Shown here in pieces: positions 35,557-51,504 of a stretch of DNA of 64,000 nucleotides. Origin of the DNA: a virus. Every line of letters starts with the position of its first letter. Within the stretch, counting starts at the first letter, position 1. The translations under genes and the position numbers were made by a program. The notes under the pieces are model-generated. The model did no database searches. It was not told where the DNA came from and worked only from the letters and a program-made list of their open reading frames with translations. The DNA lies in the IMG/VR virus record IMGVR_UViG_3300036860_000542, positions 1-64,000 of that record; one strand, given 5' to 3'.

Positions 35557-35886
35557 TTATCGGGAACGCTTGCCGAGAAAGTAGCCAAGAGCGCCCACAG
35601 CCACCATGGCGATAACGTTCATGGGGTCTTCGAGGATTCCGTCGAGTCCCTTCAAGCCCTTCGGCAGCTTCGAGTCGGCGATCTTCTTGACGCACCGCTT
35701 GAGCTTCTTGGAGTAGATGAAACCGACCGGACACGGATCCTTCGGCGGATCAGGCTCCACCAGGAGGATGCGCTCCGCTCCCCACTGCGGTCCCCAGGTG
35801 GGGTACTGGATCGGGAAGGGGTACGGGTAGAATCCTCCGCCCCGCCGATGATGCCAACCAAGTCCGGTGCGTCCCATGTTCATCAT
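35557..35886 (-). CDS. putative virion membrane protein
   Basis: GLG motifs, C-terminal hydrophobic helix followed by GKRSR. Confidence 0.6.
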   Translation of the reverse strand: MMNMGRTGLGWHHRRGGGFYPYPFPIQYPTWGPQWGAERILLVEPDPPKDPCPVGFIYSKKLKRCVKKIADSKLPKGLKGLDGILEDPMNVIAMVAVGALGYFLGKRSR

Positions 35887-36185
35887 CCTTTCAGGAGACC
35901 GTACCCAACACCAGCAAGACCCACCAGACGCGCTGTCTTGCGCTCCATGCCGAGGAGACAGGCCACACCCATCGCGAGGAGCCCGAACTGCACAGCGGGC
36001 ACCACAGAGCCCCAGGCGCCCAATCCGTCGGCGTTGCCGACGTACTGGAGCTGGGTGACGCCGCCCGTGTGGAACTTCCCGCTCAGCGGCGCCGGTGCCT
36101 CGGGCTTGCAGCACGGCTTGCCGACGTAGCAGTTGTTGCAGCACTTCTTCTTGGCGCCCTTGTGCTTCATCTGCCACCTCCGCAC
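35883..36185 (-). CDS. putative virion membrane protein
   Basis: Cys-rich basic N-terminus, DGLGA, two hydrophobic helices. Confidence 0.55.
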   Translation of the reverse strand: MRRWQMKHKGAKKKCCNNCYVGKPCCKPEAPAPLSGKFHTGGVTQLQYVGNADGLGAWGSVVPAVQFGLLAMGVACLLGMERKTARLVGLAGVGYGLLKG

Positions 36186-36631
36186 TCACAGAAATACCGA
36201 GACTTTCCGCATACTTGGCAGCGACCGTTCTTGCGAGTCGCGAGCTCGAGAGTGCTTCCACACCGCTTGCAGTGTCCGATCTCGAAGCGCTCCTCGTCGT
36301 CCTCACGACGACCGCCTGGGTGCGTCTCGGTTCGGAAGAGGCTGGGATCCGACTTGAGTCGCTCGTGGTAGGCGACGGGACAACTCTCCTGGCTGAACTT
36401 GTGGGTGGCGCGCTTGCGGCGCACGTGGACGGTGGTGGCACCACCCTTCGGATCGGTGACGACCTCGAAGCCAGCCGGCCCTGCAGCCTTGGTGAGCTCC
36501 TTCAGGAGGGCGTAGGACGTGTTATCGTCGGCGTCGAACTGCATGGTCTCGACGCCCAGAGCTGTGAGTGTGTCGTAGACGAAGGCTTCAGCAGCGCTGC
36601 CTTCGGGAACGACCGCGTAGGCTCGAGTCAC
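36167..36631 (-). CDS. hypothetical protein with C-terminal Zn ribbon
   Basis: GTG start overlapping upstream stop; CKRC, CQVC. Confidence 0.5.
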   Translation of the reverse strand: MTRAYAVVPEGSAAEAFVYDTLTALGVETMQFDADDNTSYALLKELTKAAGPAGFEVVTDPKGGATTVHVRRKRATHKFSQESCPVAYHERLKSDPSLFRTETHPGGRREDDEERFEIGHCKRCGSTLELATRKNGRCQVCGKSRYFCECGGGR

Positions 36632-37056
36632 ACGTCCCTCGCGATGTTCTTCTCGATTGCGACTCGCCACCGGCAGAGACCAAGACCGAACTCCTGGCGC
36701 CTCCCTTCCGGTAGCTCCCAAGTGCATTCGAACGGCTCGACGGAGAGCTCGCCGGTTTCCGGCTTCCAATCCATGTCCTTGCGCTCCTGGCGCACGTAGA
36801 GGGCGTGCGGGGCACCGGGCATGGAGCACTTCGGGCAGATGAGGTGGAGGACGAAACGTCCATCCGTCAAGTAGAGGTCGGACTCGATCACCCGGTCACG
36901 CCAGCGGATGAGCGGGTGACCGATAGCCGACTTCGTCATGTCGATGGACGACTGGATACCGTGCTGTGCCGACTCCCCGGACGGATCGGGGACGTCACCA
37001 GCAATGTGGTAGAGGGATTCGCGTTGAGGGTCGAAGGCAGTGCTCATGGTGTACAT
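36628..37056 (-). CDS. hypothetical Zn-binding protein
   Basis: CPKC...LSVEPF.C...C.W. Confidence 0.55.
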   Translation of the reverse strand: MYTMSTAFDPQRESLYHIAGDVPDPSGESAQHGIQSSIDMTKSAIGHPLIRWRDRVIESDLYLTDGRFVLHLICPKCSMPGAPHALYVRQERKDMDWKPETGELSVEPFECTWELPEGRRQEFGLGLCRWRVAIEKNIARDV

Positions 37057-37067
37057 CCTACCAGGAG

Positions 37068-37364
37068 CTACTTCCTCTTGCCACCACGCCTCTTCAGGAG
37101 GTAGATCCCACCGATCACTGCCACTCCGCCCAAGATCCATGGCAGGTAGCTGGGGGACTCCTGGATCGTGACCGGCGCCGCAGCCTGCCCCTTCCCGAAG
37201 ACGGAAGCGATCGCGTCGAAGCCGGACTTGATGGTCCCGCCCCAGTCTGTCTTCGCGGTGGTCGCAGCGGCCGGCTTCGGGGTCACGCTGCCAAGAATCC
37301 CACCGGTGATGCTTCCAGTGAGGGCCGGCGTCGCACCCATCCCGGTCTTGATGTACTGGCTCAT
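37068..37364 (-). CDS. tail-anchored membrane protein, MSQY paralog 3
   Basis: MSQYIKTGMGA; WILGGVAVIGGIYLLKRR. Confidence 0.75.
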   Translation of the reverse strand: MSQYIKTGMGATPALTGSITGGILGSVTPKPAAATTAKTDWGGTIKSGFDAIASVFGKGQAAAPVTIQESPSYLPWILGGVAVIGGIYLLKRRGGKRK

Positions 37365-37606
37365 TTCTTTCCTCCAGCCGCCTTGCGGCGACGCTTCAAG
37401 AAGTAGGCGCCGCCGACGAGCGCGACGGCACCAAGCAGGTACCACTTGTACGTGTCCAAGAAACCGCCCGAAGGCGCGGCGGCGGCAGCGGCAGCGCGTT
37501 CGGCAGCTCGCTTGGCGGACACGCAGCGTTCCACGCCACCGGACCTACGATGAAGTTGTCCAGGACCGCAGGTCAAACCGAGACCGATGGGAACGTACTG
37601 GCTCAT
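37361..37606 (-). CDS. tail-anchored membrane protein, MSQY paralog 2
   Basis: MSQYVPIGLGL; YKWYLLGAVALVGGAYFLKRR. Confidence 0.75.
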   Translation of the reverse strand: MSQYVPIGLGLTCGPGQLHRRSGGVERCVSAKRAAERAAAAAAAPSGGFLDTYKWYLLGAVALVGGAYFLKRRRKAAGGKK

Positions 37607-37845
37607 CGCTTTCTGCCCTTCTTGCGTCCTCGGCGCTTGAGATAGATGACTCCGCCTGCAAGCGCCATGGTACCCAGCAGGTACCACTTGTACTTGGAGA
37701 CGAAGCCTTCCTGCACCGGAGTGACCGTGGTTCCTGTTGGTCCTGTGCTCACCTTGACGCCGGCTTTGGCCAGCTGGGTGCTCAAGGTGGGAATCATCCT
37801 CGAGAAGACGCCAGGAACCGCACCAACTGCGATGTACTGGCTCAT
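37603..37845 (-). CDS. tail-anchored membrane protein, MSQY paralog 1
   Basis: MSQYIAVGA; YKWYLLGTMALAGGVIYLKRR. Confidence 0.75.
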   Translation of the reverse strand: MSQYIAVGAVPGVFSRMIPTLSTQLAKAGVKVSTGPTGTTVTPVQEGFVSKYKWYLLGTMALAGGVIYLKRRGRKKGRKR

Positions 37846-38888
37846 GACCGCCTCCGTAGGAAGAGGAAGTAGATGGCCGCCGCGCCACCGGCGTAGAGGG
37901 CCCACTTCGGCACCTTGCTCAGCATGCCGGCCGCTGCGGCTGCAGGGAGTTCAGGAGCGGCCGGGGCCGGCCCGGCATCCTCTTCGCCTTCCTCTGGGGG
38001 AGCATCAGGGCTCCACGGGCCGCTGGGACCACCGCCTCCACCACCCCCGCCACCGGCGTAGGCTTCCGGCGGAAGAGGCATGGATGGACCCGGTACGATC
38101 GGCGTGAGACTCGAGACCGGTCCTGGAGGCGACTGCACGAGCGGTTGCGCCGTCGTGGCGGATGCGAACGACTTGGTGGAGAGCGTCGCGAGCGTCGGCT
38201 TGACCAACGACCCGGTCTTGGGCAAGGAAATCGTCCGCGACGGAGCGGCCAGCTTCTCGGTGATCTGCTTGAACCAACCCTTGTGAAGGCCGCGATTGCC
38301 CGGCGCCGTCTTGGTGCCGAGTACGCGCTTCACCTTCTTCTTGGCAGCAGCACGCTGCGCAGCAGTGGGTACGAGCGGCATGGCTTTCTTGACCTCCGTC
38401 TGTTTCACAACCGCGGGCGCCGGGGCCTTCACCGGAAGGAGTACCGGGGCCGTCACAGCGGCCACGGGAAAAGTGGGGACGGTGGCCTTCGTCACAGGTG
38501 TGAGCGAAGAGACCGGCCCCGCCGGCATGGGAGCGATCAAACTTGGAGCCGCAACTCGCGTCGGCGCTGGGGCTGGCGTCGTCGAGATCGGAGCGAGTGC
38601 AGAGACGAGGCTTGGCAGAGGTGTCGCCACCGATCGGATCGGAGCGGCTGATACGACGAGCGGCTTCACCGACACCGGTGGGATGACCATCGGCTTCGCG
38701 GCCGTGGCACGAGCCACAGCAGACACTGGGGCGGCCTTGGAGACCGCAATCGGAGCCGCCTTGGGCACAGGCTTCGGGGCGGGCTTGGGCGCAGGTCTCG
38801 CCACCGCCACCACCTTCTTGACGGCGGCCACGATCGGCTTGGGGGCCGTCACCGACAGGGTGAGGCCAAGGCTGCGTCTGTACGACAT
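37842..38888 (-). CDS. Ala/Pro/Lys/Thr-rich low-complexity protein with C-terminal membrane anchor
   Basis: MSYRRSLGL start; PKPA repeats; poly-Gly linker; KWALYAGGAAAIYFLFLRRRS. Confidence 0.7.
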   Translation of the reverse strand: MSYRRSLGLTLSVTAPKPIVAAVKKVVAVARPAPKPAPKPVPKAAPIAVSKAAPVSAVARATAAKPMVIPPVSVKPLVVSAAPIRSVATPLPSLVSALAPISTTPAPAPTRVAAPSLIAPMPAGPVSSLTPVTKATVPTFPVAAVTAPVLLPVKAPAPAVVKQTEVKKAMPLVPTAAQRAAAKKKVKRVLGTKTAPGNRGLHKGWFKQITEKLAAPSRTISLPKTGSLVKPTLATLSTKSFASATTAQPLVQSPPGPVSSLTPIVPGPSMPLPPEAYAGGGGGGGGGPSGPWSPDAPPEEGEEDAGPAPAAPELPAAAAAGMLSKVPKWALYAGGAAAIYFLFLRRRS

Positions 38889-39229
38889 CAGCGCTTCCCC
38901 AGGGAGTACCCGATGAAGAAGGGGATACCCAGAACGGCGAGCGCGGCGACCGGCGCGACCCACTTGTGCTGCAGGGCGTACTTGTACGCCTTCAGGGGCG
39001 CCACCGCGTACTTGAGGCCGATACCAGCAGGCTTGGCGCCGCCAGGTTTGGCTGGCGGCTGCAGCGCGTTGATGTCCATGATGAGCCCCGTCACCTTGGG
39101 GAGTGCTGGGTCATCAAGGATCGCGGACGTGGCCTGCACAACTCCGCCCACCTTGCCGGCGTACTCGGCCACCGCGCCAGCGAGTGCTTGGCGGCGAGCT
39201 CTGCTCCGGTTGCGGTTGACGTAGCTCAT
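38888..39229 (-). CDS. putative virion membrane protein
   Basis: MSYV basic leader; C-terminal hydrophobic helix followed by GKR. Confidence 0.7.
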   Translation of the reverse strand: MSYVNRNRSRARRQALAGAVAEYAGKVGGVVQATSAILDDPALPKVTGLIMDINALQPPAKPGGAKPAGIGLKYAVAPLKAYKYALQHKWVAPVAALAVLGIPFFIGYSLGKR

Positions 39230-39337
39230 CAGATCCTCAAGTAGCCCGTCGATCTTCGTCTCCGTCCCTGAACACGTCTCCGGTAGTTCGTGCAGGGTAG
39301 GCCTCGCGAGGCCGACGGGCTAGTTCAAGAGCCGATG

Positions 39338-39949
39338 CTACTTCTTCCTCCTTCCGGCCAGACGCATCACCAGGTTGCCGACGCCCAGCTTGGTCCAGGC
39401 CAGGTAGGCGATCCCAACGATCACGCCCCACTTCATGAGCTGGCCACTGGTGTCACACTGCCAGGCGCCGTACTTGGCGATGCACTCGTACTTCTCCTTC
39501 TCCTTCGCGTAGTCGGCGTAGGAGTTGATCGCCGCCATGAGCACTAGAGCCACGGCGCCAACCACGATCAACAGGGGCAGGATGCCCTGCGCCTGCGGGC
39601 CGGAGGGCGGTGGCGCCGCGCCGACGATGATCAGTCGAGCGAGGGTCGGAGCGTCCGATGGGAGACGGACGTTCGACCCGTATACCTCGAGCAGGAGCGC
39701 TTGCATCTTCGCCGCCAGCGTCGCCTCGATCTGAGCCCGTTCGGCCGCCTCTGTTGGGGAGAGCCCGGCGCGGCTGTTCATGTCGCGGTACTTGAGCCAG
39801 TCCTTCAAGGACCGCTTCATCTTGTTGAGCTCGACTCGAGGGTTCTTCATGGGGGTAGCTCCCATCCCACCGTAGTGGATGAGCTCCGCCAACGGCGCAT
39901 CGGAATGCGGGATCTGGCGGACAGGAACGGTGTCGTAGTGCTTCGCCAC
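39338..39949 (-). CDS. putative virion membrane protein, two TM helices
   Basis: GTG start with AGGAG SD; YGGMGATPMKNP; two hydrophobic helices; basic tail. Confidence 0.7.
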   Translation of the reverse strand: MAKHYDTVPVRQIPHSDAPLAELIHYGGMGATPMKNPRVELNKMKRSLKDWLKYRDMNSRAGLSPTEAAERAQIEATLAAKMQALLLEVYGSNVRLPSDAPTLARLIIVGAAPPPSGPQAQGILPLLIVVGAVALVLMAAINSYADYAKEKEKYECIAKYGAWQCDTSGQLMKWGVIVGIAYLAWTKLGVGNLVMRLAGRRKK

Positions 39950-39957
39950 TTCGTCTC

Positions 39958-40572
39958 CTACATGTTGACGATGCGGTAGCCAGGCAGCGCGACCACGAGC
40001 TGGCCCTGCGTCGGCGGCGTCGAGCCGCTGAACGTGATGGCCTCGTAGGTCGGGGTGACGGCGATCGTCGTGTTCGGGGTGAACAGCGACGGCACCGGCA
40101 GCGGGATGACGTTCTCCGGCTGCGAGAGCAGTCCACCAGGAACCGGGGACGACTGGAAGTTGCGCTGCGACCCGGTGTCGATGAACTGGTAGCTGATGTC
40201 GATGAAGTCGGCCGCGATGGTCTGCGTGGGGAGCTGCGCCGAGCACACCGGCCGCCACCGACCGAAGTTGGTGGCGCTGGAGGGCAGCGTCGGCTTCCAC
40301 AGGATCATCGGGTAGTGGGTCATGATGAACGGGCCGTCCTGGGAGACCAGCATCTGGGCTGGGTTCCCCTGGCGACCGTTCACCGTGATGTCGAACAGCA
40401 CGGTGCCGACGAGGGTATAGAAGAGACGACGACCAGGGATGGCGTCGATCTCCTCCTGGACGGTGCGCGGCTTCTTGGCCGCCTCCTTCAGGATGTCCAT
40501 CTCCTGTCGGAGACGCATGATCTCCTGCTTGAAGGGGGCGAGGGCCTGTCTGAGGGCTGCGTTGTCGGACAT
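39958..40572 (-). CDS. putative single-jelly-roll capsid protein 2
   Basis: Short N-terminal coiled coil then about 160 aa of alternating beta-type sequence; LPVPSLF.PNTTIAV and terminal LVVALPGYR mirror the upstream gene. Confidence 0.55.
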   Translation of the reverse strand: MSDNAALRQALAPFKQEIMRLRQEMDILKEAAKKPRTVQEEIDAIPGRRLFYTLVGTVLFDITVNGRQGNPAQMLVSQDGPFIMTHYPMILWKPTLPSSATNFGRWRPVCSAQLPTQTIAADFIDISYQFIDTGSQRNFQSSPVPGGLLSQPENVIPLPVPSLFTPNTTIAVTPTYEAITFSGSTPPTQGQLVVALPGYRIVNM

Positions 40573-40655
40573 CGGAAGCACTCCCTATACCCGGAGGTTG
40601 GGCTGGTCTGGTCGAACACCGGGTTGCGACTCGCCAGACCTTCGAGGGTAGAAGT

Positions 40656-40702
40656 GAGGGGGGAAGTCGGGCGGGGTGTGGGTGTACCCGACTTCCCCCC
40701 TC
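40656..40702 (-). terminator. 16-bp perfect hairpin after the putative major capsid gene
   Basis: GAGGGGGGAAGTCGGG 40656-40671 / CCCGACTTCCCCCCTC 40687-40702; weak U tract. Confidence 0.65.
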
Positions 40703-40713
40703 GTGTCGAACGA

Positions 40714-41292
40714 CTACTGGACGTCGCGGGTCTGGAGGCCGTCGATGACGAACATGATCACCTTCTCGTCATCGGTGGCGCCCGTGTTCAGGTTCACCAG
40801 GGCGTCGGTGGAGCCCACGGTGAAGAACTGGCACTGGACCGCGAAGTTCTGGCGGACCGGCACCATGATGGGCCGCGCCAGCTTCAGGATCGCCTCGTGG
40901 GTCGGATCGCCGAGGTTGAAGATGGACGTGGTGTCGTCCACCGAACCCCAGACGCCGCCGCCCGACGGGTAGTACCAGCACGGCGCCTGGAAGGCCGGCT
41001 TGTCACCCAGCGACAGGGTGAAGTAGAGCTGCGAAGCCACCCGCAGGTAGTTCGCACGACGGTTGGTGCCGTTGAAGTACAGCCAGCACCGCAGGGCCAG
41101 GATGACGTAGGTCTGATCGGACGCGAGCTGGCCGGCGACCTGGAGGTTCGTGAGGTCCAGGCGGCCGATGTTCGCGTTGCCGAACAGCACCGTGGTCTGC
41201 TGGACCACCGGCGAGGGGGTGCCGGTGGTGCGGATGATGGTGTCCCAGAACGGCTGGTGACGACGTTCCTTGACTCCGTGAAGACGAGGCAT
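40714..41292 (-). CDS. putative single-jelly-roll major capsid protein
   Basis: 192 aa, beta-rich, strong AAGGAG SD, strongly biased codons, followed by a strong hairpin; TNL..AGQL, L..PI.VP.RQNF.V, terminal FVIDG..R.VQ. Confidence 0.62.
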   Translation of the reverse strand: MPRLHGVKERRHQPFWDTIIRTTGTPSPVVQQTTVLFGNANIGRLDLTNLQVAGQLASDQTYVILALRCWLYFNGTNRRANYLRVASQLYFTLSLGDKPAFQAPCWYYPSGGGVWGSVDDTTSIFNLGDPTHEAILKLARPIMVPVRQNFAVQCQFFTVGSTDALVNLNTGATDDEKVIMFVIDGLQTRDVQ

Positions 41293-41465
41293 CTGGCTTT
41301 CTCCTTGCTCTCGACGTCCTCTGTTTTGTCTCGACCGAGCATCATTGCCGGTCTAGTGGGGTGACTTCCCCATCTGCAGACGTCGATCCAGCGGGTAGTG
41401 CAGCGGGCAGCGCGGAGTGAAGTGGAAGGTGGGGGCCCCCGAAGGAGCCCCCACCTAGTCGCGTT

Positions 41466-42881
41466 CTAGTAGCCCCAGCCCCAGCCGCCGAAGATGCCGG
41501 CGTACAGGGAGTCGAGCTTGTCGGCGGCCGGCGTCCACTGGGGGACCGTTCGGACCATCGACCTGGAGGGCACAGGGGCCAGCATGCGGGCCGTGGGGAC
41601 CGGGGCGACCATGGCAGGAGCACCGGCGGCGCCGAGCTCCTCGTAGGCACCGGTCTCCATGTACTCGCCGAGCTCCTCTTCGGCGCCCGTCTCGACGTAC
41701 TCGCCCGTCTCGACGTACTCGCCCATGTCCTGCTGGAAGGCGCCGAGGGCCTCGTCGTACACGCCCTCCGCCGCGCCCAGGGCAGCCTGGACCGACAGCG
41801 GGGCGTACGCCTTGATGAGGGCCTCGATCAGGTTCACGCCCAGGCCGATCATGATCGGCGAGTGGTACCGGGACAGGAACCGGACCTTCTTGGTGGCGAT
41901 GCTGCCCAGGACCACCATGCCGGCATGGAGGACAGGACCAGCGTGGTTGCCCAGCTTGTCCGCCACCATGCCGCCCAGGCGGCTCACGATCAGCCGGCCA
42001 CCGACCATGGCGCCGACTACCGGAAGGGCAGCCTTGGCCACGGTCATGAGCCCGCCGAGCGGGTTCTTGCGGAGGCGGAAGCCCCGCAGGATGCCACCAC
42101 GACGCCGGCCATGACGGCGCCGACGCGGGTTGTGACGCCGACGCCGACGGCGACGGGGATTCGCCAGCACGGGGGCGAAGGCATTGCGGCGACGACGCCG
42201 AGCGTGACGACGCCGACGAGGATTCCGACGAGCCTTGCGACGCCGACGCTTCCGGCGCGGGTTCATCAACGGCTCACCCGCTGTGAAGTGCCGACCACCG
42301 GCGTACTTCTTCCGCCGGGTCCGCCACGCCTTCTTGGCCGCACGACGCCGACGCGCCTTCCCGTAGCTCTTCCGGCGCACCTTGCCACGGCGGGCCTTCC
42401 GACGCTTGCGGAAGCCCTTGGGTCCGTACTTCTTCCGCCGGGTCCGCCACGCCTTGAGGGCGGCGCGACGGCGCTTGCTCGACTTCCTCTTCTTCGCCAT
42501 CGGGGTTCTCCTTCTCTTGGGCCGTCGCGCCTTCCGGCGCGGGTTGGTGTACAACAGGGCCGCGTTGCGGCGGCGACGCCTCCGGCGCGGGTTGGCCAGC
42601 GCCGTCATGTGGGGGTTCTTGCGGCGGCGCCGAGCCTTGCCGAACTTCTTGTTGTGGGCCCGCCAGTAGCGCTTGAGGCCGATCGGCATCTTGCGCGAGA
42701 TCTTCACAGGACCCTTCGGACGGCGCGCCTTGGAGCGCTTCCGCTTCGGGTTCAGGCGGGACGCCCGAACAGCAGCGAGGCCGCCGCGGGCAGTGGAAGC
42801 AGTTCGACGGGCCTTGATGAGGCCGAGCTTTCGCCGGAGGGCTGCGGTTCTTCCAGGAGGATTGACGAACCAGGTTGGCAT
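41466..42881 (-). CDS. protamine-like Arg/Lys-rich core polyprotein with membrane-associated and acidic C-terminal domains
   Basis: About 270 aa of Arg/Lys runs split by ten NP dipeptides; then hydrophobic helices; then GEYVET repeats. Confidence 0.75.
   Translation of the reverse strand: MPTWFVNPPGRTAALRRKLGLIKARRTASTARGGLAAVRASRLNPKRKRSKARRPKGPVKISRKMPIGLKRYWRAHNKKFGKARRRRKNPHMTALANPRRRRRRRNAALLYTNPRRKARRPKRRRTPMAKKRKSSKRRRAALKAWRTRRKKYGPKGFRKRRKARRGKVRRKSYGKARRRRAAKKAWRTRRKKYAGGRHFTAGEPLMNPRRKRRRRKARRNPRRRRHARRRRRNAFAPVLANPRRRRRRRHNPRRRRHGRRRGGILRGFRLRKNPLGGLMTVAKAALPVVGAMVGGRLIVSRLGGMVADKLGNHAGPVLHAGMVVLGSIATKKVRFLSRYHSPIMIGLGVNLIEALIKAYAPLSVQAALGAAEGVYDEALGAFQQDMGEYVETGEYVETGAEEELGEYMETGAYEELGAAGAPAMVAPVPTARMLAPVPSRSMVRTVPQWTPAADKLDSLYAGIFGGWGWGY
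41684..41724. repeat. 18-bp tandem repeat encoding GEYVET
   Basis: CGCCCGTCTCGACGTACT twice plus a partial copy. Confidence 0.85.
42302..42455. repeat. 31-bp direct repeat encoding KAWRTRRKKY
   Basis: Identical copies at 42302-42332 and 42425-42455. Confidence 0.85.
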
Positions 42882-42977
42882 GCTCTCTCCGTTCAGTTTC
42901 CCAACGACAAATCGTTGGGGGCGCTTCCGCGGTTACTGTTGTCCGCGCACCGGAGAGAGCGAGGACTTGCGAGTCTA

Positions 42978-43007
42978 AAGATACGGGTACTTCCAGGACC
43001 CTGTCAA
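42978..43007 (-). promoter_or_regulatory. sigma70-like promoter for the core/capsid operon
   Basis: Minus strand TTGACA-18 nt-TATCTT. Confidence 0.65.
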
Positions 43008-43009
43008 GT

Positions 43010-43438
43010 TCATCTACGCCTGGGGGAGGATAGAGCGGAATCCAGCTTAGATTCCAAGCGGTTAAGAGATTCGAGAATCGACCGAAGTCGTACCTCCTGC
43101 TCCGCTTTGGATACCTCGAGCGTCTTCACACGCTCGTCGAGGGTCTTCTGCATGGCGGTGTACTCCGCCCTCGCGCTCACGAAGCTCTCCGCGTCGGGGT
43201 ACTTCCCGAGACGGAACACCGTCACCGCGATCGGCACACCCATGGTGATGACGAAGGCGCACACCCACGATGCCACCTTCGCGATCGACGGACGAAGCAT
43301 GTTCTCGATCCACGAGAACTTCGTATTGCCCTGGTTGAGGCTGTTCTTCACCTCTTCCTTGAAGTGCGCGAAGGTGTGCTCAATGACGAGCATGCGATCG
43401 CGCAGCTCCTTGAACTCTTCGGCTTCCTGTGGAGTCAT
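43010..43438 (-). CDS. membrane protein with coiled coils (holin-like candidate)
   Basis: One central TM helix flanked by heptad segments; ATGA overlap. Confidence 0.5.
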   Translation of the reverse strand: MTPQEAEEFKELRDRMLVIEHTFAHFKEEVKNSLNQGNTKFSWIENMLRPSIAKVASWVCAFVITMGVPIAVTVFRLGKYPDAESFVSARAEYTAMQKTLDERVKTLEVSKAEQEVRLRSILESLNRLESKLDSALSSPRRR

Positions 43439-44145
43439 CCGGTTATGCCTTCCGGTCTCACGTCCAGCATCCCGCCCCACAACGCGGCCTCGAGCCTCGC
43501 TCGAGGTCCCTTCACGTCGATGATGAGCAGGGCGCGACCGGAAGGAACAGCGTAGAGCTCAGGATACGGTCGCGCCTCTGCATCAGACTTCCTGCCGGCG
43601 GCGTTCTTGTACTGGAAGCCGAGACACAGGCCGAGCAGGTAGAGGCTCTCCACCTTCTTCAGCCAACTAGGAACCTCTTCCAGCGGACCCTCATCGATCA
43701 TGGAGTCCGTTGGCACGTACACACCCACTCCGGCCTCGTGCTCGTGGATGTAGTCGTTGAACTTCGACTCCCACTTGTCGGAGCGATAGAGGATGTGGTA
43801 GGCATCGCCGATGTACATGAGCTCCGAAGGCATCTGAAAGCCTTCCAGAATGCCGAACTCCTGGGGATCGAACTTGGTGAAGCGCTTGTAACCCTTCACC
43901 GCGTCCATGAAGTCGGGGGGAGGTTCAGGTGGGTTCTTTTGTGGACGCTCGCCCAACTTGCGAAACATGTCCTCTTTCGAGAAACCCAGGTATCCGTGCA
44001 TGTGATGCTTGCCCATGCCAGCGTCGGCATCAAACCAGGCGTTGCTCTGTCGATCAAAGTAGACCGTCGCGATGGTGTTGCCATCGTCGTCAACCACCAG
44101 TTGATTGCCGGTGTCCGCGTAGTCCTTGGCACGTTTCAACTTCAC
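43435..44145 (-). CDS. putative virion protein with internal KNP junction
   Basis: Two segments joined at RPQKNPPEPPP; position in structural block. Confidence 0.55.
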   Translation of the reverse strand: MKLKRAKDYADTGNQLVVDDDGNTIATVYFDRQSNAWFDADAGMGKHHMHGYLGFSKEDMFRKLGERPQKNPPEPPPDFMDAVKGYKRFTKFDPQEFGILEGFQMPSELMYIGDAYHILYRSDKWESKFNDYIHEHEAGVGVYVPTDSMIDEGPLEEVPSWLKKVESLYLLGLCLGFQYKNAAGRKSDAEARPYPELYAVPSGRALLIIDVKGPRARLEAALWGGMLDVRPEGITG

Positions 44146-44564
44146 CGAATCGCCTCCAACGTCTCGACGAAGTGGCGGTTGGAGAGCGCGCTATCTCCAC
44201 GCAGAGATCGGATTCTGGAGACGACGGTTCGAGCACTCATACCCATGATCCGCATCGCCATGGCAGCCACCCAGGCGGAACGGTTGCGGCCCGCAAAACA
44301 GGTGACGAGAACCTTCTTGCCCCTCTCCAACGCATCCGCCACCACGACCGCAGTGCGAAGCGCCCACGCACGCTCCGTCAAGGTGGGCTTGGCGTCGTCA
44401 AGGCCTACGTAGACGAGGTTCTGTCCGGTCTCTGGGAATCGAGGTTGGTACTCAAGGGCAGTGAAGACGATCATATCGAAGCCCTTCGGAAGAACCATGG
44501 GAGCCGAACCGATGAATAGGTTCGGATACACCTCAGTTCTGTCTGCGAGCTCCTTCATGTTCAT
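44142..44564 (-). CDS. dual-specificity protein phosphatase
   Basis: EVYPNLFIGS, LDD acid loop, VLVTCFAGRNRS (CX5R), R..AL.N..F. Confidence 0.85.
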   Translation of the reverse strand: MNMKELADRTEVYPNLFIGSAPMVLPKGFDMIVFTALEYQPRFPETGQNLVYVGLDDAKPTLTERAWALRTAVVVADALERGKKVLVTCFAGRNRSAWVAAMAMRIMGMSARTVVSRIRSLRGDSALSNRHFVETLEAIR

Positions 44565-44845
44565 CTCATGATGCGCCAGAGGCCGTAACCGAGCAACCCC
44601 AGGCCAATGTACAACGACCAAGAGGAGCCGCCGAGATCGAAGTCTCCCAATCCTCGAGCGATCTGGCCACGAGCAGCTGCGCCCTCACCGATTTTCCTCA
44701 CGCCAGCAGGCAGTGCCCAACCAGCTTGGTCTGAAGCCACACGGGTGCCGAGATGAGATGGTGCCTTCGGGAACGCGGCGGTCTGATGGCCGTCCTCGTA
44801 GTAGTCGTACCGGCGCAAGGCCGGCTTCCAGACCGAGTAGATCAC
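44561..44845 (-). CDS. small tail-anchored membrane protein
   Basis: RGLGDF followed by a C-terminal hydrophobic helix. Confidence 0.65.
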   Translation of the reverse strand: MIYSVWKPALRRYDYYEDGHQTAAFPKAPSHLGTRVASDQAGWALPAGVRKIGEGAAARGQIARGLGDFDLGGSSWSLYIGLGLLGYGLWRIMR

Positions 44846-45030
44846 TTCTTTCCGCCCAGCCAGATCAGAGCCATCACCAGGACGAAGGTTCCGCCGAGGC
44901 CGAGAAGAACACTCTTCCCGTCCACCGCACCAAGACCATGCTTCCTGGAGGGAGGAGCCGGGTAGCCGCGCCAGTCCCAGGCGTAGGGCGCCATGCCGTG
45001 GGAGTAGAATCCATCCTTGGGAGCTGCCAT
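44842..45030 (-). CDS. small tail-anchored membrane protein
   Basis: HGLGAV followed by a hydrophobic helix and GKK. Confidence 0.65.
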   Translation of the reverse strand: MAAPKDGFYSHGMAPYAWDWRGYPAPPSRKHGLGAVDGKSVLLGLGGTFVLVMALIWLGGKK

Positions 45031-45034
45031 CGGA

Positions 45035-46009
45035 CTACCTCCGCTTCTTCTTGGGCTTGAAGATGAAGAAGGCCGCGACGCCGATGCCGGCGGCGGCGAC
45101 CATGCCGTACCCGGACGTGAGGAAGTTCATGATGCCGCTTCCCAGGAGCGACGTGCCGGCGCTACCCGCGTCGGGCGACATCGATGACACGAGGCTCTGC
45201 ACGGAGGCCACCGCCTGGCCCGCGGTGCCAAGGTACTTCCTGATTATGATGGCCGTCTTGTCGGCCGAGGCCGCCACGACGAACGGACGCTGGTACTTCT
45301 CCCAGGCGATGTAGACACCCTGGAGATGGTTCGCCTCATCCGTGGTGAGCTTACGATTGTAGCGATCCAAGAATAGCTCCTTGGCCCTCCGCGCTGCGGC
45401 AGCCGCCGTCTTCGGGCCGATCTTCCCATCGATCGCCACGCCGAGGACCGTCTGGAGCTGCTTGAACTTGGTGGTCACGGCTGGGCTCTTGCCGAAGCAA
45501 TACTCCGCGCTGCCACCGCCCACACAATCGATCGACGTGCTGGGGATCGTATAGATGATGGCGGCGTCGAGCGGAGACACTGAAGCACCAAGGCTGATCG
45601 GCTCGCCGATCGCTGTGCGCTGCGTCTGCTTCCAGTTGATCTGCTTCATCGGCTTCAGGTTCCACCGCTTGTTGCGGCGGCAGAGCTTGTAGATATGCAT
45701 CCACGGAACCGCCGGCCAGTTGCGGCCCGCAACCTGAGCGATGGCAGACTGAGTCGCCGCGTTCATGAGGCCGTTTCTCGGGACGTTGAAGCCGAGCTCG
45801 TTGAGGCACTTCTGGATGCCTTGCACGACCACCATGACCGGCTGCGAGGACGGATCGCTCTCCCCAGGCGTGAGGAAGAGAGTCGGGACCGCCATGCTGG
45901 CCAGATACGGTCGCACGCCCATGTCGGCGATGATCTGCCGAACGTCGAGCGGGCCGATCGGGAACTCAGGCGCTTCGGCTTCGCCGTTCTTCTTCTCTTC
46001 CTTTGCCAT
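45035..46009 (-). CDS. membrane-anchored protein with two peptidoglycan-binding-like motifs
   Basis: VQGIQKCLNELGF....NG.M...T..AI and LQ..LGV.IDGKIGPKT..A; C-terminal TM followed by KPKKKRR. Confidence 0.65.
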   Translation of the reverse strand: MAKEEKKNGEAEAPEFPIGPLDVRQIIADMGVRPYLASMAVPTLFLTPGESDPSSQPVMVVVQGIQKCLNELGFNVPRNGLMNAATQSAIAQVAGRNWPAVPWMHIYKLCRRNKRWNLKPMKQINWKQTQRTAIGEPISLGASVSPLDAAIIYTIPSTSIDCVGGGSAEYCFGKSPAVTTKFKQLQTVLGVAIDGKIGPKTAAAAARRAKELFLDRYNRKLTTDEANHLQGVYIAWEKYQRPFVVAASADKTAIIIRKYLGTAGQAVASVQSLVSSMSPDAGSAGTSLLGSGIMNFLTSGYGMVAAAGIGVAAFFIFKPKKKRR

Positions 46010-46011
46010 GA

Positions 46012-46644
46012 TCAATCTCTCCTTCGAGTCACCAGGTGCGTGACGTAGAACGCGCCAAGACCGATGCCGGCCCACTTCATCCAAGTGGGCACGCTGGGTA
46101 GGAGCCACCAGGCGGCCTTGAATGGCGCCTTGACGATCGCCTGCGCCACGTCGTGCGCGGCTTCAGCAACCGCTTCTCCGAACATCGTGTACGCTCGCGG
46201 TGCCAAGAAGATCCCGCCGGACCGGAGCACAAGCTGTTCGGTGGACTTCCAGAAGCTCACCGCCAAGCTCTCCGGCAGAATCGAGTTGCCGTAGGCGTTC
46301 GCGAGCGCGGTGTTGATCCAACCAGTCTCCGACTGCCAGGCGGGGTACTCGCGCTTCCACGCGATACGGCCGGCGGAAGTGAGCAGCGGTGCTGCCACTC
46401 CGAATAGGAGGGCATTGAAGGCCTCATCGTTGTTCACGCGCTTGTTGACTTGCGTGAACGGCTCCTCCCAGAAGTTCTTCAGCTTCAACCATTGCGTGCC
46501 CGAGAGGTTGGGGTATCGAATGTCCGTCCGACCGGGAAGGAAGACGGAAGTCTCTCCCCAGACACGCCTCGCCTCGTTCTTCTGAGCAGCGAGCATGCCC
46601 ACGAAGTCGCGGTAGTTGACGGTCTGGACGGTGAAGTTCGCCAT
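46012..46644 (-). CDS. tail-anchored membrane protein
   Basis: WMKWAGIGLGAFYV..LV.RRRD. Confidence 0.65.
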   Translation of the reverse strand: MANFTVQTVNYRDFVGMLAAQKNEARRVWGETSVFLPGRTDIRYPNLSGTQWLKLKNFWEEPFTQVNKRVNNDEAFNALLFGVAAPLLTSAGRIAWKREYPAWQSETGWINTALANAYGNSILPESLAVSFWKSTEQLVLRSGGIFLAPRAYTMFGEAVAEAAHDVAQAIVKAPFKAAWWLLPSVPTWMKWAGIGLGAFYVTHLVTRRRD

Positions 46645-46652
46645 GGCTTACC

Positions 46653-47780
46653 TCACTTCAACAGGATGACAGCAAGGAGGATGGCGCCCCCGCCGATGGC
46701 CACCGGGATGATGGGAAAGCCACCGCCGGTAGAGCCAGCATCGCCAGGCGTCGGAGCGCAAAGACCTTGCGCCACGTCGGCGCCGGTCGAACCAGCCTGC
46801 GCGCCCTGTGGTCCACCAGCCGCCGCGCCGCCCGCCATCGCGCCGAGCTTGAGAAGGCCGCTGTTGGCGATCTTGCACGCCACCTTCCCGACCTTGTCGA
46901 GCGCGTTCTTCGCCTTGTCGGCGACCTTGCTGGCCGTCCCGGGGAAGGTGAGCGCAAGAGACGCCCCACCAGTAGCAGGAGCGAGGATGACGCCTGCTCC
47001 CTTCTTGGCGTAGCTCTTCACGGAGCTCCACAGGCCACCGAGACCATCAGCCCCAGCGCAGCACGCACCGAGACCCATGAGGCCGCTGGTGGGCGCCTTG
47101 CCCGTCTTGCCCATCTCCATGAGCTGGTCGAGCGTGTGGTTGGCAACGACGACGGTGATGGCCTTCAGGAGCGCCGTCTTCGCGTCGTACTTCTTCGCCT
47201 TCATCAGCAACTCGGCCTTGGACTCCACCGCGGCCGGGAAGCTCGAGTCGATGTTCCCAAGCACCGCCTGGAGGAAGATCTTCCTCTCGATCGGTGTCCT
47301 GAACTGGCGGGCATCGGCCATCAGCATGCCGGCGATCTGCTTGGCGAGCTGCGCCACGCCATCACGACCGCCGCCCGGAGCGTCGGCAAGCGCGCCGAGC
47401 GAGCTCCGACCAGCGAGCGTCGGGTTCGACAAGGTGCCGTACTTGCCCGCGCTCTTGTTCTCGTCGAAGATTCCGACGCCGACGCGCTCGGTGTGCTCAC
47501 GCGCCGTGACGATCTCCGGGATGAGACCGAAGATCGTCCCGCGCTTCGTGTAGTGGGTGGTTCGCACGCCCTGGCCGAGCGGTTCGTCACGGACCGACTG
47601 CGGAAGGATGTACGGAGGCCAACCGCCTGGGTTCCGCGGGTTGCGCAGGCCCTGAACGTCGATCGTCTTCCTCTTGCGGTACTTCGAGACGATAGCGCCT
47701 CGACGGAACGGCTCGTCGATGACGTTCTGCGGGATCGCGTACCCGGCGATGTAAGGAGATCCGCGTCTCAGAAGAGCCAT
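46653..47780 (-). CDS. putative virion membrane protein with several LG motifs
   Basis: AAGGAG SD; SLGA, GLMGLGA, DGLGGLW; C-terminal TM. Confidence 0.7.
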   Translation of the reverse strand: MALLRRGSPYIAGYAIPQNVIDEPFRRGAIVSKYRKRKTIDVQGLRNPRNPGGWPPYILPQSVRDEPLGQGVRTTHYTKRGTIFGLIPEIVTAREHTERVGVGIFDENKSAGKYGTLSNPTLAGRSSLGALADAPGGGRDGVAQLAKQIAGMLMADARQFRTPIERKIFLQAVLGNIDSSFPAAVESKAELLMKAKKYDAKTALLKAITVVVANHTLDQLMEMGKTGKAPTSGLMGLGACCAGADGLGGLWSSVKSYAKKGAGVILAPATGGASLALTFPGTASKVADKAKNALDKVGKVACKIANSGLLKLGAMAGGAAAGGPQGAQAGSTGADVAQGLCAPTPGDAGSTGGGFPIIPVAIGGGAILLAVILLK

Positions 47781-47781
47781 G

Positions 47782-48303
47782 TCACTTTCTCCTTTTGGAC
47801 TTGCGAGCTGCAACCTCAAGATAGCGGATCATCCGACGCAACGTGTTCACGTTGTCGTCGATCAGACCAAGAGCCATGTTGCAGATGTGGCAGAGTAACC
47901 CGCGTACCGCGCCTGTTTTATGATCGTGATCGATCGGCCACTTGTGATGATCTCTCCACGGACCACGAGTCTCTTTCGAGCCGCAAATGGCGCAGGCGTG
48001 ACCCTGTCTCTGTAGCATGCGATTGTATTCAGCATCCGTAAGACCGAACTTTCTTAGCCTTCGGGCAGCCGAACGTAGGACTTTTGTCTCCGGCGACTTT
48101 TCGTATGCGCGCCTTTCAGCTAGGTACTTTTTCCAAGCTGCAGGATCTTCTTTCTTCAGCTTCTGCTTCCAGCGCTTGATGCGTTCTCGCGCCTTCCTTT
48201 TACACTCTTCATACCAAGCAGGGTCCTCTTCGGCTTTCTTTCGATGCCAAAGGGTGGACGCGCTCTTTCCGCCCCGATCCTTCATGTACATAGTATAGCT
48301 CAT
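47782..48303 (-). CDS. endonuclease VII-type HNH (homing) endonuclease
   Basis: Q...CAIC...IDHDHKTG.VRGLLC..CN..LG; visibly more AT-rich than neighbours. Confidence 0.88.
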   Translation of the reverse strand: MSYTMYMKDRGGKSASTLWHRKKAEEDPAWYEECKRKARERIKRWKQKLKKEDPAAWKKYLAERRAYEKSPETKVLRSAARRLRKFGLTDAEYNRMLQRQGHACAICGSKETRGPWRDHHKWPIDHDHKTGAVRGLLCHICNMALGLIDDNVNTLRRMIRYLEVAARKSKRRK

Positions 48304-48857
48304 GCCACCGGCCACACCTTGGCCGCGACGACGCGCCTGAGCATCTTCCTCGTGTCGGGACCCGCTACGGGGTCGCAGACAATCCACGTTCCACTCTTCG
48401 GCTCTCGAGCCTCACAGAAGACGTGGCTGTACTGGCGTTCCTTCTTGTAGAACATGTGCCGGAATGCGCAAGTCACCACCCTCACTTCGCATCCAACGGC
48501 AAGGCACAACGCCCCGATGAGCGCTGCCATGTCGTCGCAGTCGAGGTTCGGAATCTGGCCGGTCTTCATCTGGTTGCACACCACGTAAGGCGCCTTGACA
48601 AGCTCGATGGTACGCGGATCGCGCATGTAGCGCGTGTGCGCGGAGACGAAGTTGTTGACGGCCAAGATCTCGGAGAGATAGTCCTTCGTGCGCAGACCCT
48701 GGCAGATGTCCTCAGCGAGCTGGCGCACGCACGAGTGGTTCTGCGACTCGAGCATTCCGCGGGCGATGAAGGCGACGCTATGCGGCGCCCCACGGTAGTC
48801 GAGCTTCAGAACCCTGTCATCACCAAGTCCCCACGGCACGTAGGGGACACTTTCCAC
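48300..48857 (-). CDS. transglutaminase-like (papain-fold) cysteine protease candidate
   Basis: Y..DP..E, DCDD (Cys), SHVF (His), W...DP (Asp). Confidence 0.85.
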   Translation of the reverse strand: MESVPYVPWGLGDDRVLKLDYRGAPHSVAFIARGMLESQNHSCVRQLAEDICQGLRTKDYLSEILAVNNFVSAHTRYMRDPRTIELVKAPYVVCNQMKTGQIPNLDCDDMAALIGALCLAVGCEVRVVTCAFRHMFYKKERQYSHVFCEAREPKSGTWIVCDPVAGPDTRKMLRRVVAAKVWPVA

Positions 48858-48918: not shown

Positions 48919-50559
48919 CTACTCGACGGGCGGGGATTCCGTGGGGACTTCAGGGGCTTCCGCAGGCGGCGCTTCGTCTTCGGTCATGCCGAGCATGGCC
49001 GCAACGCACTTCCTCAGCCAGTTCCGACCGCGCTGCGAGTACAGGATCGACCCGTCCGGCGGGTTGGCGGCCTGAATGAAGGCGTCCGGTCCCATTTGCC
49101 GGAGAGCGGAGATGATCTCCGTGGGCACCATCGAGCGTGCCGAGACGGCGAAGGCCATCGGATCTGTCCCATTGGTGATGGCCTGCTCGACGAACTGCAT
49201 CGCCGCCGCGACCTCCATCGGGTTCAACTCGATGACGTGACCCTGAGAAGGCGCTTGCGGCTTCGGCTTGCGAGTCGAAACCACTGCGGTCTCGCCCTGT
49301 GCTGCGGCACGCGCTGCTTGCGCCGCTCTCTTCCGCTTCAGCACCTCCGGGTTCACCTGAGGAGGAGCAGCGGGCGGGGCGTTCTCGACTCGAGACGCCA
49401 CAGCCTGTGCCATCGGGCTCTGCATCACGGTCTGCAGCACACGCTCCCAAGTGGAAGCCGGCTCCTGTTCGCCAGGACCGAGGATCTCGAGAGCATTCTT
49501 GAGCTGCGCCACCTGCTCGACGGCGTCGAGAGGACCCTTCTCCTTGATGTCGCGCAGCTTCGCGCACTCGGTCTTCGACTCGGCGAGCTGCCTCTCGAGG
49601 TCGGCGACCCGACCCTTGAAGCCGTCGAGCCGGGCCTCGTAGCTCTGCTCGACGGACTTCAACGCCTGGCCATGCGTCTCGCGCAGCATGCTGATCTCAC
49701 GATCGTGCGAGCGATCGCGTCTCTCGAGCTCCGCTTGAAGGCGAGTGCGCTCCGCTTCGACGTCATGGCGATTGTTCTCTCGGAGGGTACGCAGCTCCGA
49801 GTCGAACTGAGCCCGCAGTGCATCGATGCGCCCGGACTCGCCCGCCACCAGGTGCTCGAACGTCTTCTCGATCACCGACGGTGTGGACGGTGTCTTGTTG
49901 GCGTTCGTGATGAGGTTGAGGATCTGGGCATCCTTCTCCGCCATCTGCCGACGCATCTCCATCATCTCTTGCTGCAGCATCTTGACGGCCGGCGGATCGA
50001 AGGCGAGCTTCATGAGCTCCGCATCGCCTCCGCCCTTCTTGCGGTTCTCGTCCTCGAGCTCCCAGGCTCTCTTCTGGCTGAGCTCTGCGGCGCGGGCCAT
50101 GTGGTCGAGGGCCTTGCCCTGCAGGGCGACATCGTCACCGTCCTTGAGCATGGTCTTGGGGGCACCGGGCGTCTCGGCAAGCAGCGCACCACTCAGCCGC
50201 GGATCACCTTCGATCTCGAACGACTTCGCACCCGCGTAGGTCCAACCGCCCTTCGGGTTCGGTCGGAACGTCTTCACCTGGTACTTGCCGCCACCGAAGC
50301 GCTGCTTGATGTCTTTCTCGTCGAAGGGCTCGTCGTACTCCTCCAGGAAGCCGGCGATGTGGTGGCCTTGCCACTCACGAGGGTATTTCCTCTCGAGCTT
50401 GATCTTGAGCGCACCCGAGGTGCCGAGCTCCTGGAGCCACTCGAAGATGGACTTGTCCTCCGCCTGCGCGATCGTCTGCGCGGACATGGACACGTCCTCC
50501 TTCTGCTTGCCCTTGAGCGGCGTCACAGGTGCGACGTCATCGTAGGTCTGTTCACTCAT
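48919..50559 (-). CDS. large coiled-coil protein (assembly/scaffold candidate)
   Basis: AAGGAG SD; N-terminal globular part, about 200 aa of heptads, helical C-terminal domain. Confidence 0.7.
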   Translation of the reverse strand: MSEQTYDDVAPVTPLKGKQKEDVSMSAQTIAQAEDKSIFEWLQELGTSGALKIKLERKYPREWQGHHIAGFLEEYDEPFDEKDIKQRFGGGKYQVKTFRPNPKGGWTYAGAKSFEIEGDPRLSGALLAETPGAPKTMLKDGDDVALQGKALDHMARAAELSQKRAWELEDENRKKGGGDAELMKLAFDPPAVKMLQQEMMEMRRQMAEKDAQILNLITNANKTPSTPSVIEKTFEHLVAGESGRIDALRAQFDSELRTLRENNRHDVEAERTRLQAELERRDRSHDREISMLRETHGQALKSVEQSYEARLDGFKGRVADLERQLAESKTECAKLRDIKEKGPLDAVEQVAQLKNALEILGPGEQEPASTWERVLQTVMQSPMAQAVASRVENAPPAAPPQVNPEVLKRKRAAQAARAAAQGETAVVSTRKPKPQAPSQGHVIELNPMEVAAAMQFVEQAITNGTDPMAFAVSARSMVPTEIISALRQMGPDAFIQAANPPDGSILYSQRGRNWLRKCVAAMLGMTEDEAPPAEAPEVPTESPPVE

Positions 50560-51067: not shown

Positions 51068-51504
51068 TTCTTCTCCTTCTTGCGAGGCGCCAGGTAACGC
51101 TGGCGAGCGTGTTCACGATTCGCGATGTCCATAGGGTCCATGGGGACCCACTCGGAGCATTCGAAGACGCAGTCATCGGTGAGGTCGAGCTCCACACCAG
51201 GGATGACCTTGCAGATGCGGTTGATCTGCCTTGGCGCCCGATCGAGGCCTCTCGACTCCACCTCCGCGAAGGAGTGGATCTCGATGTAGTGACGACAGGG
51301 ACCACGTAGGCAAACGAAGTTGTCCGGGCTGGCCTTCGGAAGCGGTTCGGGTCTCCCAAGGTACCCGACCATGTTCGGGCCGCCGTCCTTCGCCGGAGGC
51401 GGCGCCGGGTCCGGTTCCACGTCCTTCCAGGGGTCGAGCTCCTTTCGCTTCTCGTCGTCGAGCTTGTCGCCGTCTTTACCCACCTGCCGGTTGCCGATCT
51501 TCAT
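51064..51504 (-). CDS. Cys-containing hypothetical protein, first gene of leftward block
   Basis: GGAG SD; C...C.H, C...C..C. Confidence 0.7.
   Translation of the reverse strand: MKIGNRQVGKDGDKLDDEKRKELDPWKDVEPDPAPPPAKDGGPNMVGYLGRPEPLPKASPDNFVCLRGPCRHYIEIHSFAEVESRGLDRAPRQINRICKVIPGVELDLTDDCVFECSEWVPMDPMDIANREHARQRYLAPRKKEKK

Follow-up and report, generated by a model that had tools for sequence, protein, structure and literature searches.

A transglutaminase-fold enzyme and a common leader on tail-anchored proteins: a candidate motif-directed maturation system in the late module of an uncultured virus

We analysed a window of 64,000 nucleotides, the first 64 kb of the IMG/VR virus record IMGVR_UViG_3300036860_000542, in which a late module on the minus strand, extending from about 51.5 kb down to 35.5 kb, encodes a transglutaminase-fold enzyme and a series of tail-anchored membrane proteins with a common N-terminal leader. 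The record is complete: it is 82,417 bp long, has a G+C content of 62% and bears a direct terminal repeat of 127 bp. Ribosome sites of the AGGAG type precede its genes, which encode, among others, a family A DNA polymerase, a ribonucleotide reductase, ThyX, helicases, a tyrosine integrase, and a block of sugar-nucleotide and glycosyltransferase functions. No terminase, portal or HK97-type capsid protein was found among the 71 proteins of window and genome, a part of the full gene set, that were scanned in Pfam. The virus, which infects a bacterium, is probably membrane-containing and tailless; its reading as a tailless virus with a jelly-roll capsid is tentative.

The gene order of the module is kept in related IMG/VR records of 75-86 kb. 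A 546-aa coiled-coil scaffold-like protein is followed by the enzyme, a large anchored protein and several small anchored proteins; then come a conserved 236-aa protein, an Arg/Lys-rich protein, two small β-rich proteins and a run of small anchored proteins (Table 1). The enzyme gene, which a preliminary description of the window had put at the head of the operon, is the second or third gene of the module, since 48919-50559 and 51064-51504 precede it on the same strand.

The transglutaminase-fold enzyme

The enzyme matches the Pfam family PF01841 (Transglut_core) with 27.7 bits against a cut-off of 23 (E 3.5e-6), and its counterpart in a distant virus (L007, described below) does so with 31 bits. 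The Cys-His-Asp triad pointed out in the preliminary description is real: C107 (in DCDD), H145 (in SHVF) and D162 (in CDP) are invariant in 30 of 30 aligned homologs, together with a family-specific R-Y-x-x-D-P...E-L block and a Y-R-G-A-P element. The AlphaFold model has a mean pLDDT of 88.4. Searched against structures with Foldseek, it returned transglutaminase-fold chains only (the putative proteases 3kd4 and 3isr, Rad4/PNGase, TG2, LapG, TgpA, TglA and PeiP), and the four listed hits at E ≤ 0.001 were all transglutaminase-like putative proteases. The fold is thus certain, and the enzyme belongs to the transglutaminase-like superfamily (PF01841, papain-like clan), a fold that does not by itself fix the chemistry. 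According to PMC10318531, the papain-like clan includes the transglutaminase cores. The enzyme had no match in PHROGs, none in the PDB by sequence profile, and none in IMG/VR when that database was searched with the single protein.

Across six related loci the enzyme is 46-61% identical, which places it, with the capsid-like proteins, among the best-kept products of the module. Its homologs form at least 517 clusters, many of them on contigs of 65-110 kb. The window's enzyme and the 29 homologs aligned with it stop right after the core and have no C-terminal anchor. Self-activation at its own WGLGD, an earlier suggestion, was rejected because the site is not conserved: at that position [GSA][LM]G is present in 3 of the 30 homologs and GVG in one more, and most homologs begin downstream of it.

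In one relative (G005) the enzyme gene contains an intein-like insert of 328 residues (L006:6853-7836) placed exactly between Asp106 and the catalytic Cys. It begins with Cys, ends with Asn just before the catalytic Cys, and gives a weak LAGLIDADG match (19.2 bits, cut-off 22.5). Eight longer homologs of about 430-520 aa were found, and in seven of them (P0274-P0280) an insert is present at this same junction; the eight show no precomputed Pfam domain, no other fusion and, in particular, no wall-binding fusion. An insert directly before the catalytic Cys marks the Cys motif as a highly constrained site. Such a placement is typical of essential active-site motifs, and we count it in favour of the interpretation given below.

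The enzyme is also found at larger distances. In the distant virus (L007:9899-17709, 56% G+C) it is 30% identical, has its own anchor and occupies the same place in the same gene order, being followed by a basic protein, two β-rich proteins and an anchored protein starting MSTFGSIG. This anchored version matches gp34 of the cultured phage SSIP-1 in a tblastn search (E 2e-7). By hhalign, the family of the window's enzyme aligns with SSIP-1 gp34 over 138 columns (97.9% probability, E 3.8e-13), including the R-Y-x-x-D-P...V-E-L block and the D-C-D-x-M Cys motif, so that the enzyme and gp34 belong to one family. gp34 is labelled as a structural protein in its record, which gives no function. SSIP-1 is a membrane-containing phage with an architecture of the PRD1-adenovirus type and two types of major capsid protein, according to a review (PMC6356626). 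The likeness between the two viruses lies in a true homolog at the same place in the late module, surrounded by anchored proteins with G-[LM]-G leaders: the SSIP-1 proteins ORF36, gp37, ORF52 and gp53, which adjoin gp34, carry GMGD, GLGA, GLGL and GMGS, respectively, after 16-33 residues. The differences are that gp34 is a 304-aa protein with a C-terminal anchor and an RGMGE in the linker, whereas the window's enzyme is a soluble 185-aa protein; that the SSIP-1 genome is of 43.8 kb against 82.4 kb here; and that the window's capsid-like protein has no detectable similarity to gp45 or gp46. The next gene of the window (46653-47780) was considered as a carrier of the anchor that the enzyme lacks and was rejected, its ortholog having no similarity to the C-terminal half of gp34. 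Finally, the enzyme is present in all three complete records found through the capsid-like protein; two further records are fragments that end before the region.

The leader of the tail-anchored proteins

When the proteins of the relatives were read, nearly every small one with a C-terminal hydrophobic anchor and a Lys/Arg tail was seen to begin with the same bipartite leader. It opens with M-x-Y and a hydrophobic residue, continues with about 2-25 spacer residues that vary and are mostly basic, and closes with a small residue followed by Leu or Met and by Gly. The Leu/Met is sometimes replaced by Val, Phe or Tyr; after the Gly there usually comes an Asp, Ala or Gly and then an acidic patch. 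Internal domain boundaries of two proteins, the large anchored one and the basic core-like one, show the small-Leu/Met-Gly element again. The preliminary description had seen this second element only; the M-x-Y start and the association with C-terminal anchors turned out to be the stronger half of the signal.

The 21 module proteins together contain 26 copies of [GSA][LM]G, where residue shuffles give 12.4 ± 3.5 and reach 26 in none of 2000 trials; for G[LM]G the count is 16 and the shuffled expectation 4.8 ± 2.2. Elsewhere in the genome, the 87 remaining called proteins contain 28 occurrences of [GSA][LM]G versus an expected 37.7 ± 5.8. Further counts were made on 829 proteins called in six related genomes by a crude gene caller of our own, which mis-set some starts and missed some leaders, so that the values are conservative. 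Within residues 3-35, [GSA][LM]G was present in 29 of 78 tail-anchored proteins versus 32 of 643 other proteins (Fisher, 9e-15). Shuffles gave 6.5 ± 2.4, with none of 2000 shuffles reaching 29, and residues 36-68 of the same proteins have the motif in 3 cases out of 49 only. Starts of the M.Y or MSQY type were found in 63 of the 829 proteins; a C-terminal anchor accompanies 41 of these 63, versus 70 of the 766 others (Fisher, 6e-24). The 78 tail-anchored proteins fall into 44 families when their middle regions are compared by BLAST, with the motif in 18 families and the M.Y start in 25. An unbiased scan of tripeptides in the anchored proteins, with the anchors masked, ranked MSY first (17 versus 0.7, z 18), SLG seventh (z 7.6) and MGD tenth (z 7.4); GLG alone is weak (z 2.4), which limits what can be claimed for it. 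The same leaders were seen by eye in four further loci. Variants that would naturally lack the leader and start with M-G-D were rejected in the two cases checked, where an in-frame MSY or MSF leader exists upstream and the start had been mis-set.

The best-conserved tagged family (38888-39229) was followed beyond the related genomes. Its profile, run against 1.84 billion representatives, found 368 hits. The best 150 were analysed, and 147 of these, less than 50% alike, could be anchored on a conserved D-P core. The M.Y start is present in 82 of the 147, nearly so in 13 more, and after an over-long call in 4. Before the core, [LM]G is found in 95 of the 147 (41.7 ± 5.0 in shuffles) and [GSA][LM]G in 53 (14.7 ± 3.5 in shuffles). 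In the 93 cases with a following residue, the Gly precedes Asp 38 times, Ala 14 times and Lys 3 times. The length and the sequence of the leader vary freely and both of its ends are kept. The motif is therefore conserved in homologs, and it is more than the Gly/Leu-rich background that the preliminary description had named as the way in which its proposal would fail: it is enriched over shuffles and conserved in position on the membrane proteins of the module. Conservation is lower in 45035-46009 and 44561-44845, where the site alternates between L-G and L-D.

Tagged proteins and neighbouring genes

All the motif instances cited in the preliminary description are present in the translations, and several of the reading frames in which they had been placed proved too long or composite. 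ORF 37361-37888 corresponds to two genes, 37361-37606 and, in another frame, 37603-37845; the starts of ORFs 39338-40300, 35557-36444 and 37842-38963 were corrected to 39949, near 35886, and 38888, respectively. The revised coordinates are those of Table 1.

Table 1. The enzyme and the tagged proteins of the late module, in the order of transcription
Feature	Coordinates	Strand	Basis
Transglutaminase-fold Cys-His-Asp enzyme, 185 aa, soluble, no membrane anchor in its clade	48300..48857	-	Pfam, triad, model, Foldseek
Large tail-anchored protein with an internal conserved [LM]-G-L-G site; relatives start MAYNLP	46653..47780	-	5-ortholog alignment
Tail-anchored protein with ISLGA site and weak peptidoglycan-binding-like matches	45035..46009	-	Pfam below cut-offs, alignment
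Small tail-anchored protein, 62 aa, HGLGA	44842..45030	-	Translation; homolog found only in G005
Small tail-anchored protein starting M-I-Y; RGLGD just before the anchor	44561..44845	-	Orthologs in 5 relatives
Arg/Lys-rich core-like protein with hydrophobic domain and acidic tail of [LM]G-E/D-Y and EELG repeats	41466..42881	-	Alignment
Tail-anchored protein with 31-residue leader ending GGMG	39338..39949	-	GTG start, AGGAG site
Tail-anchored protein, best-conserved tagged family: MSY, basic spacer, ALAG	38888..39229	-	8-sequence alignment, profile search
Pro/Ala-rich tail-anchored protein starting MSYRRSLGL	37842..38888	-	
Small tail-anchored protein starting MSQYIAVGAV; third MSQY paralog	37603..37845	-	ATG and 5-nt Shine-Dalgarno match
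Small tail-anchored protein starting MSQYVPIGLGL	37361..37606	-	
Small tail-anchored protein starting MSQYIKTGMGA	37068..37364	-	
Small membrane protein; DGLGA at residue 54, not N-terminal	35883..36185	-	No homolog in relatives
Tail-anchored protein starting MMNMGRTGLGW	35557..35886	-	

The internal site of the large anchored protein (46653-47780) is kept as L[ML]GLG[ACL] in 5 of 5 orthologs, with a second [LM]G about 10 residues later. In the Arg/Lys-rich protein (41466-42881), the C-terminal 230 aa align in six genomes, and an S-x-L-G, a hydrophobic-G and several [LM]G positions are kept. Its acidic tail (41466-41700, minus strand) contains repeats of the form [LM]G-E/D-Y-V/I-x-x-G as well as three EELG units, and 6 of 6 genomes keep them. 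For 39338-39949, the codons of the leader look coding (GC3 of 0.81 over the first 27 codons, i.e. 81 nt from the GTG), and the three orthologs found begin about where the leader of the window's protein ends, a coincidence that we count in favour of maturation. The peptidoglycan-binding-like matches of 45035-46009 (PG_binding_3, 22.4 bits; PG_binding_1, 20.1 bits) are both under their cut-offs, and its ISLGA, aligned with either L-D or L-G in the relatives, is only partly conserved. Orthologs of 44561-44845 start M-R-Y or M-I-Y and have GLG or LG before the anchor in 3 of 6 cases and LDG in the 3 others. The anchors of the proteins encoded between 35557 and 39229, and those of loci L009-L013, look related: the helix has G-M/I-S/P-T-T-T in front of it and a G-G pair halfway along, and there is an A-Y-L-L-F with a run of Lys/Arg behind it. 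They look like a second shared module besides the leader.

The two β-rich, capsid-like proteins are very conserved in the relatives (66-71% and 47-57% identity). The model of one of them (40714-41292), computed from five sequences, has a pLDDT of 50.4; a protein atlas gave weak leads only, to families of the PRD1 P3 and P2 types (0.76-0.78), and hhalign detected no similarity between this family and SSIP-1 gp45 or gp46. A phage collection searched with the window's enzyme (by tblastn) and with the capsid-like protein gave no match.

Several genes of the module or the genome are of separate interest. The stop of the enzyme gene is overlapped by an endonuclease VII/HNH gene (47782-48303, minus strand, 80.7 bits) that has no counterpart in eight related loci and is probably a free-standing homing endonuclease lying beside a highly conserved gene. 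The structural module also contains a gene for a dual-specificity phosphatase (44142-44621, minus strand; DSPc, 37 bits), for which the related loci have no equivalent. The first of the capsid-like genes of relative G005 is interrupted by some 800 bp of inserted sequence (L032, ~14380-15175), with a stop after exon 1. Within the insert, an ORF of the LAGLIDADG type occupies another frame; the insert resembles a group I intron that carries a homing endonuclease. The tyrosine integrase gene (27623-28441, minus strand, 111.9 bits) is located within the glycan region, and the virus may therefore be temperate. Outside the window, at 68714-69334 of the genome (plus strand; L047:5714-6334), a gene codes for an M23 peptidase (86.5 bits) with a C-terminal anchor and a basic tail and without the leader tag, which is likely to be the cell-wall enzyme of the virus; the genome also has a weak CHAP match. 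This M23 enzyme was the sole other peptidase among the 71 proteins scanned in Pfam, which yielded no other protease-like morphogenetic enzyme.

A proposed motif-directed maturation, its rivals and its parallels

The candidate maturation system of the preliminary description keeps its enzyme, its motif and the conservation of both, and loses self-activation and the position at the head of the operon. In the form that we favour, the common N-terminal leader of the tail-anchored proteins (M-x-Y ... small-Leu/Met-Gly) would be recognised as a tag by the transglutaminase-fold enzyme of the same operon, which would cut after the Gly during particle assembly; short leaders would thereby be released and domains separated, as the adenovirus protease trims its precursors. 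Leaders and enzyme domain are N-terminal to C-terminal anchors, or the enzyme is soluble, so that they would share one compartment. A hydrophobic residue in P2 suits papain-like enzymes. A Cys-His-Asp enzyme of the papain-like clan that has a proven protease, LapG, among its relatives, and a small-hydrophobic-Gly junction conserved behind a hypervariable leader, make cleavage after the Gly the simplest reading. The data show the fold of the enzyme, its invariant triad, the tag with its enrichment and conservation, and the joint occurrence of tag and enzyme; the action of the enzyme on the tag, the proteolysis and the position of the cut are inferred. We hold this reading tentatively, giving it a chance slightly short of even. 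Its extension to the whole group of SSIP-1-like membrane phages, in which the bipartite leader would address dozens of unrelated tail-anchored proteins to the viral membrane and be removed by a packaged transglutaminase-fold Cys protease, is plausible and is put forward with a little more reserve.

A number of observations speak against cleavage. With a loose hydrophobic-Gly definition the count (32) is barely above what composition gives (26.0 ± 2.8). The strict motif is found in residues 3-35 of only the 29 tail-anchored proteins out of 78, and of 4 out of 10 in the window's own genome; the 546-aa scaffold-like protein and one of the capsid-like proteins are devoid of it. The six genomes are related, so that their counts are not independent, and these counts rely on our gene caller. 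The mild depletion of the motif in 591 soluble non-anchored proteins ([GSA][LM]G, 152 versus 183.7 ± 13.3; G[LM]G, 43 versus 61.6 ± 7.6; z about -2.4), which we count in favour of cleavage, is uncalibrated on unrelated genomes. It is also conceivable that Leu/Met-Gly-Asp, with the amphipathic stretch behind it, acts as nothing more than a helix cap at the end of a disordered basic arm. Lastly, the transglutaminase fold also serves amidases, glycanases, acyltransferases and cross-linkers.

In the main rival reading, the leader would be a sorting or docking tag that stays on the protein and directs it into a patch of viral membrane, or onto the capsid or scaffold; the enzyme would then have another substrate, for instance the scaffold-like or core protein, or a host protein. 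The strongest signal of all, the M-x-Y at the extreme N-terminus (z 18 for MSY), is not a cut site, and the variable middles of the proteins are framed by anchors and leaders that both have the look of shared modules; the location of leader and enzyme domain on the same side of the membrane fits docking as well as cleavage. An N-terminal address does not, however, lead one to expect the conserved internal sites of the large anchored protein (5/5) and of the basic protein. In addition, a variable spacer with a fixed Leu/Met-Gly-Asp end resembles the junctions of propeptides, and the motif is depleted in other proteins. We regard an uncleaved tag as possible and rather unlikely. The opposite view, that there is no tag and that the motif is a by-product of a Gly/Leu/Ala-rich composition and of paralog descent, can draw on the fact that the proteins are Gly-rich, on instances of the motif lying inside anchors, on the paralogy of the three MSQY genes and on the near-expected count for the loose definition. 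It is hardly credible given that shuffles that keep the composition never reach the observed counts, that the next 33 residues of the same proteins (3/49) do not show the motif at the same rate, that 18 of 44 families unrelated in their middle regions share it, and that it is present in the distant phage SSIP-1 too.

The two other alternatives concern the enzyme. It might be a cell-envelope hydrolase acting in entry or lysis, comparable to the pseudomurein endoisopeptidases of transglutaminase fold found in methanogen phages, and the motif would then be unrelated to it. Such a role would agree with the presence of PeiP among the Foldseek hits (rank 45, E 3.5e-2), with the annotation of SSIP-1 gp34 as a virion protein and with the weak, sub-threshold peptidoglycan-binding matches of a neighbouring protein. 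We consider it improbable, and lowered our estimate because the genome has its own anchored M23 peptidase, besides the weak CHAP match; moreover, the longer homologs have no wall-binding fusion, the absence of a PHROGs match means that no lysin family is hit, and a conservation equal to that of the capsid-like proteins would be unusual for a lysin. Cross-linking, the alternative named from the outset, would make the enzyme a true transglutaminase or transpeptidase that joins the tagged proteins to the capsid, to each other or to lipid, and fold and triad are indeed common to TG2, factor XIII and TglA. The enzyme is nevertheless a bare core of 185 aa, without the extra domains that give animal-type cross-linking enzymes their multi-domain architecture, and no conserved Gln or Lys stands beside the tag, Lys following the Gly only 3 times in 93. 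The microbial homologs are reportedly argued, in the Pfam family text, to be mostly proteases, which also counts against cross-linking, and we judge this role very improbable.

The finding bears on how membrane proteins are sorted into the particles of internal-membrane prokaryotic viruses. We know of no maturation protease and of no common address tag for these viruses (PRD1, PM2, P23-77, SSIP-1), and our literature search, which did not extend to supplementary files, found no paper on the present pairing of enzyme and tag. Here, hundreds of metagenomic relatives, which would belong to a very widespread uncultured group of SSIP-1-like membrane-containing bacterial viruses, keep both a short tag that is easy to mutate and a single small enzyme, and so does SSIP-1 itself; because both occur in this cultured phage, the question is directly testable at the bench. 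If motif-directed maturation holds true, the enzyme would be a counterpart, in prokaryotic viruses and with another fold, of the adenovirus protease; it would also be the first maturation protease known from a phage with an internal membrane. Were cleavage confirmed, virus assembly would gain a new type of protease, and maturation as in adenovirus would have an independent parallel, in a virus whose capsid lineage may be that of adenovirus.

Among systems already described, the adenovirus protease (adenain), which cuts at (M/I/L)XGG-X and (M/I/L)XGX-G, offers one of two parallels in the way of working: a single packaged Cys protease and a short Gly-based consensus present on many unrelated proteins of the core and of the membrane side of the virion, one of the adenovirus precursors being small and basic with a hydrophobic tail. 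Adenain differs in fold and clan (it gave the enzyme no Pfam match and was not among the listed Foldseek hits), and here the hydrophobic residue is next to a single Gly, the host is bacterial and cleavage is putative. LapG, a Cys protease of the transglutaminase-like type, takes off an N-terminal module by cutting at a site of small residues (PMC10990149). It has the same fold as the enzyme (Foldseek 4fgq and 4fgo; TM about 0.46-0.48 on the target). The likeness remains at the level of the fold, with only 15-18% identity, and the BTLCP/LapG family profile was not matched, PF01841 being the only family returned by Pfam for the enzyme at E ≤ 0.01; LapG is periplasmic and calcium-dependent, and cuts a single adhesin substrate at Ala-Ala. 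In the double-glycine leaders cut by C39 peptidases, a short N-terminal leader ending in Gly is also removed by a Cys protease of the papain superfamily, but in an export-coupled bacteriocin system with another leader consensus and no virion context. The capsid targeting sequence of T4 is the second of these parallels, a short N-terminal tag shared by unrelated proteins that loads them into the particle and is then cut off by gp21; gp21, however, is a serine protease that acts at another site on soluble internal substrates, whereas the tagged proteins here are membrane-anchored. The system described here would work like adenain with its precursors and like the T4 tag with gp21, and it is a member of neither family.

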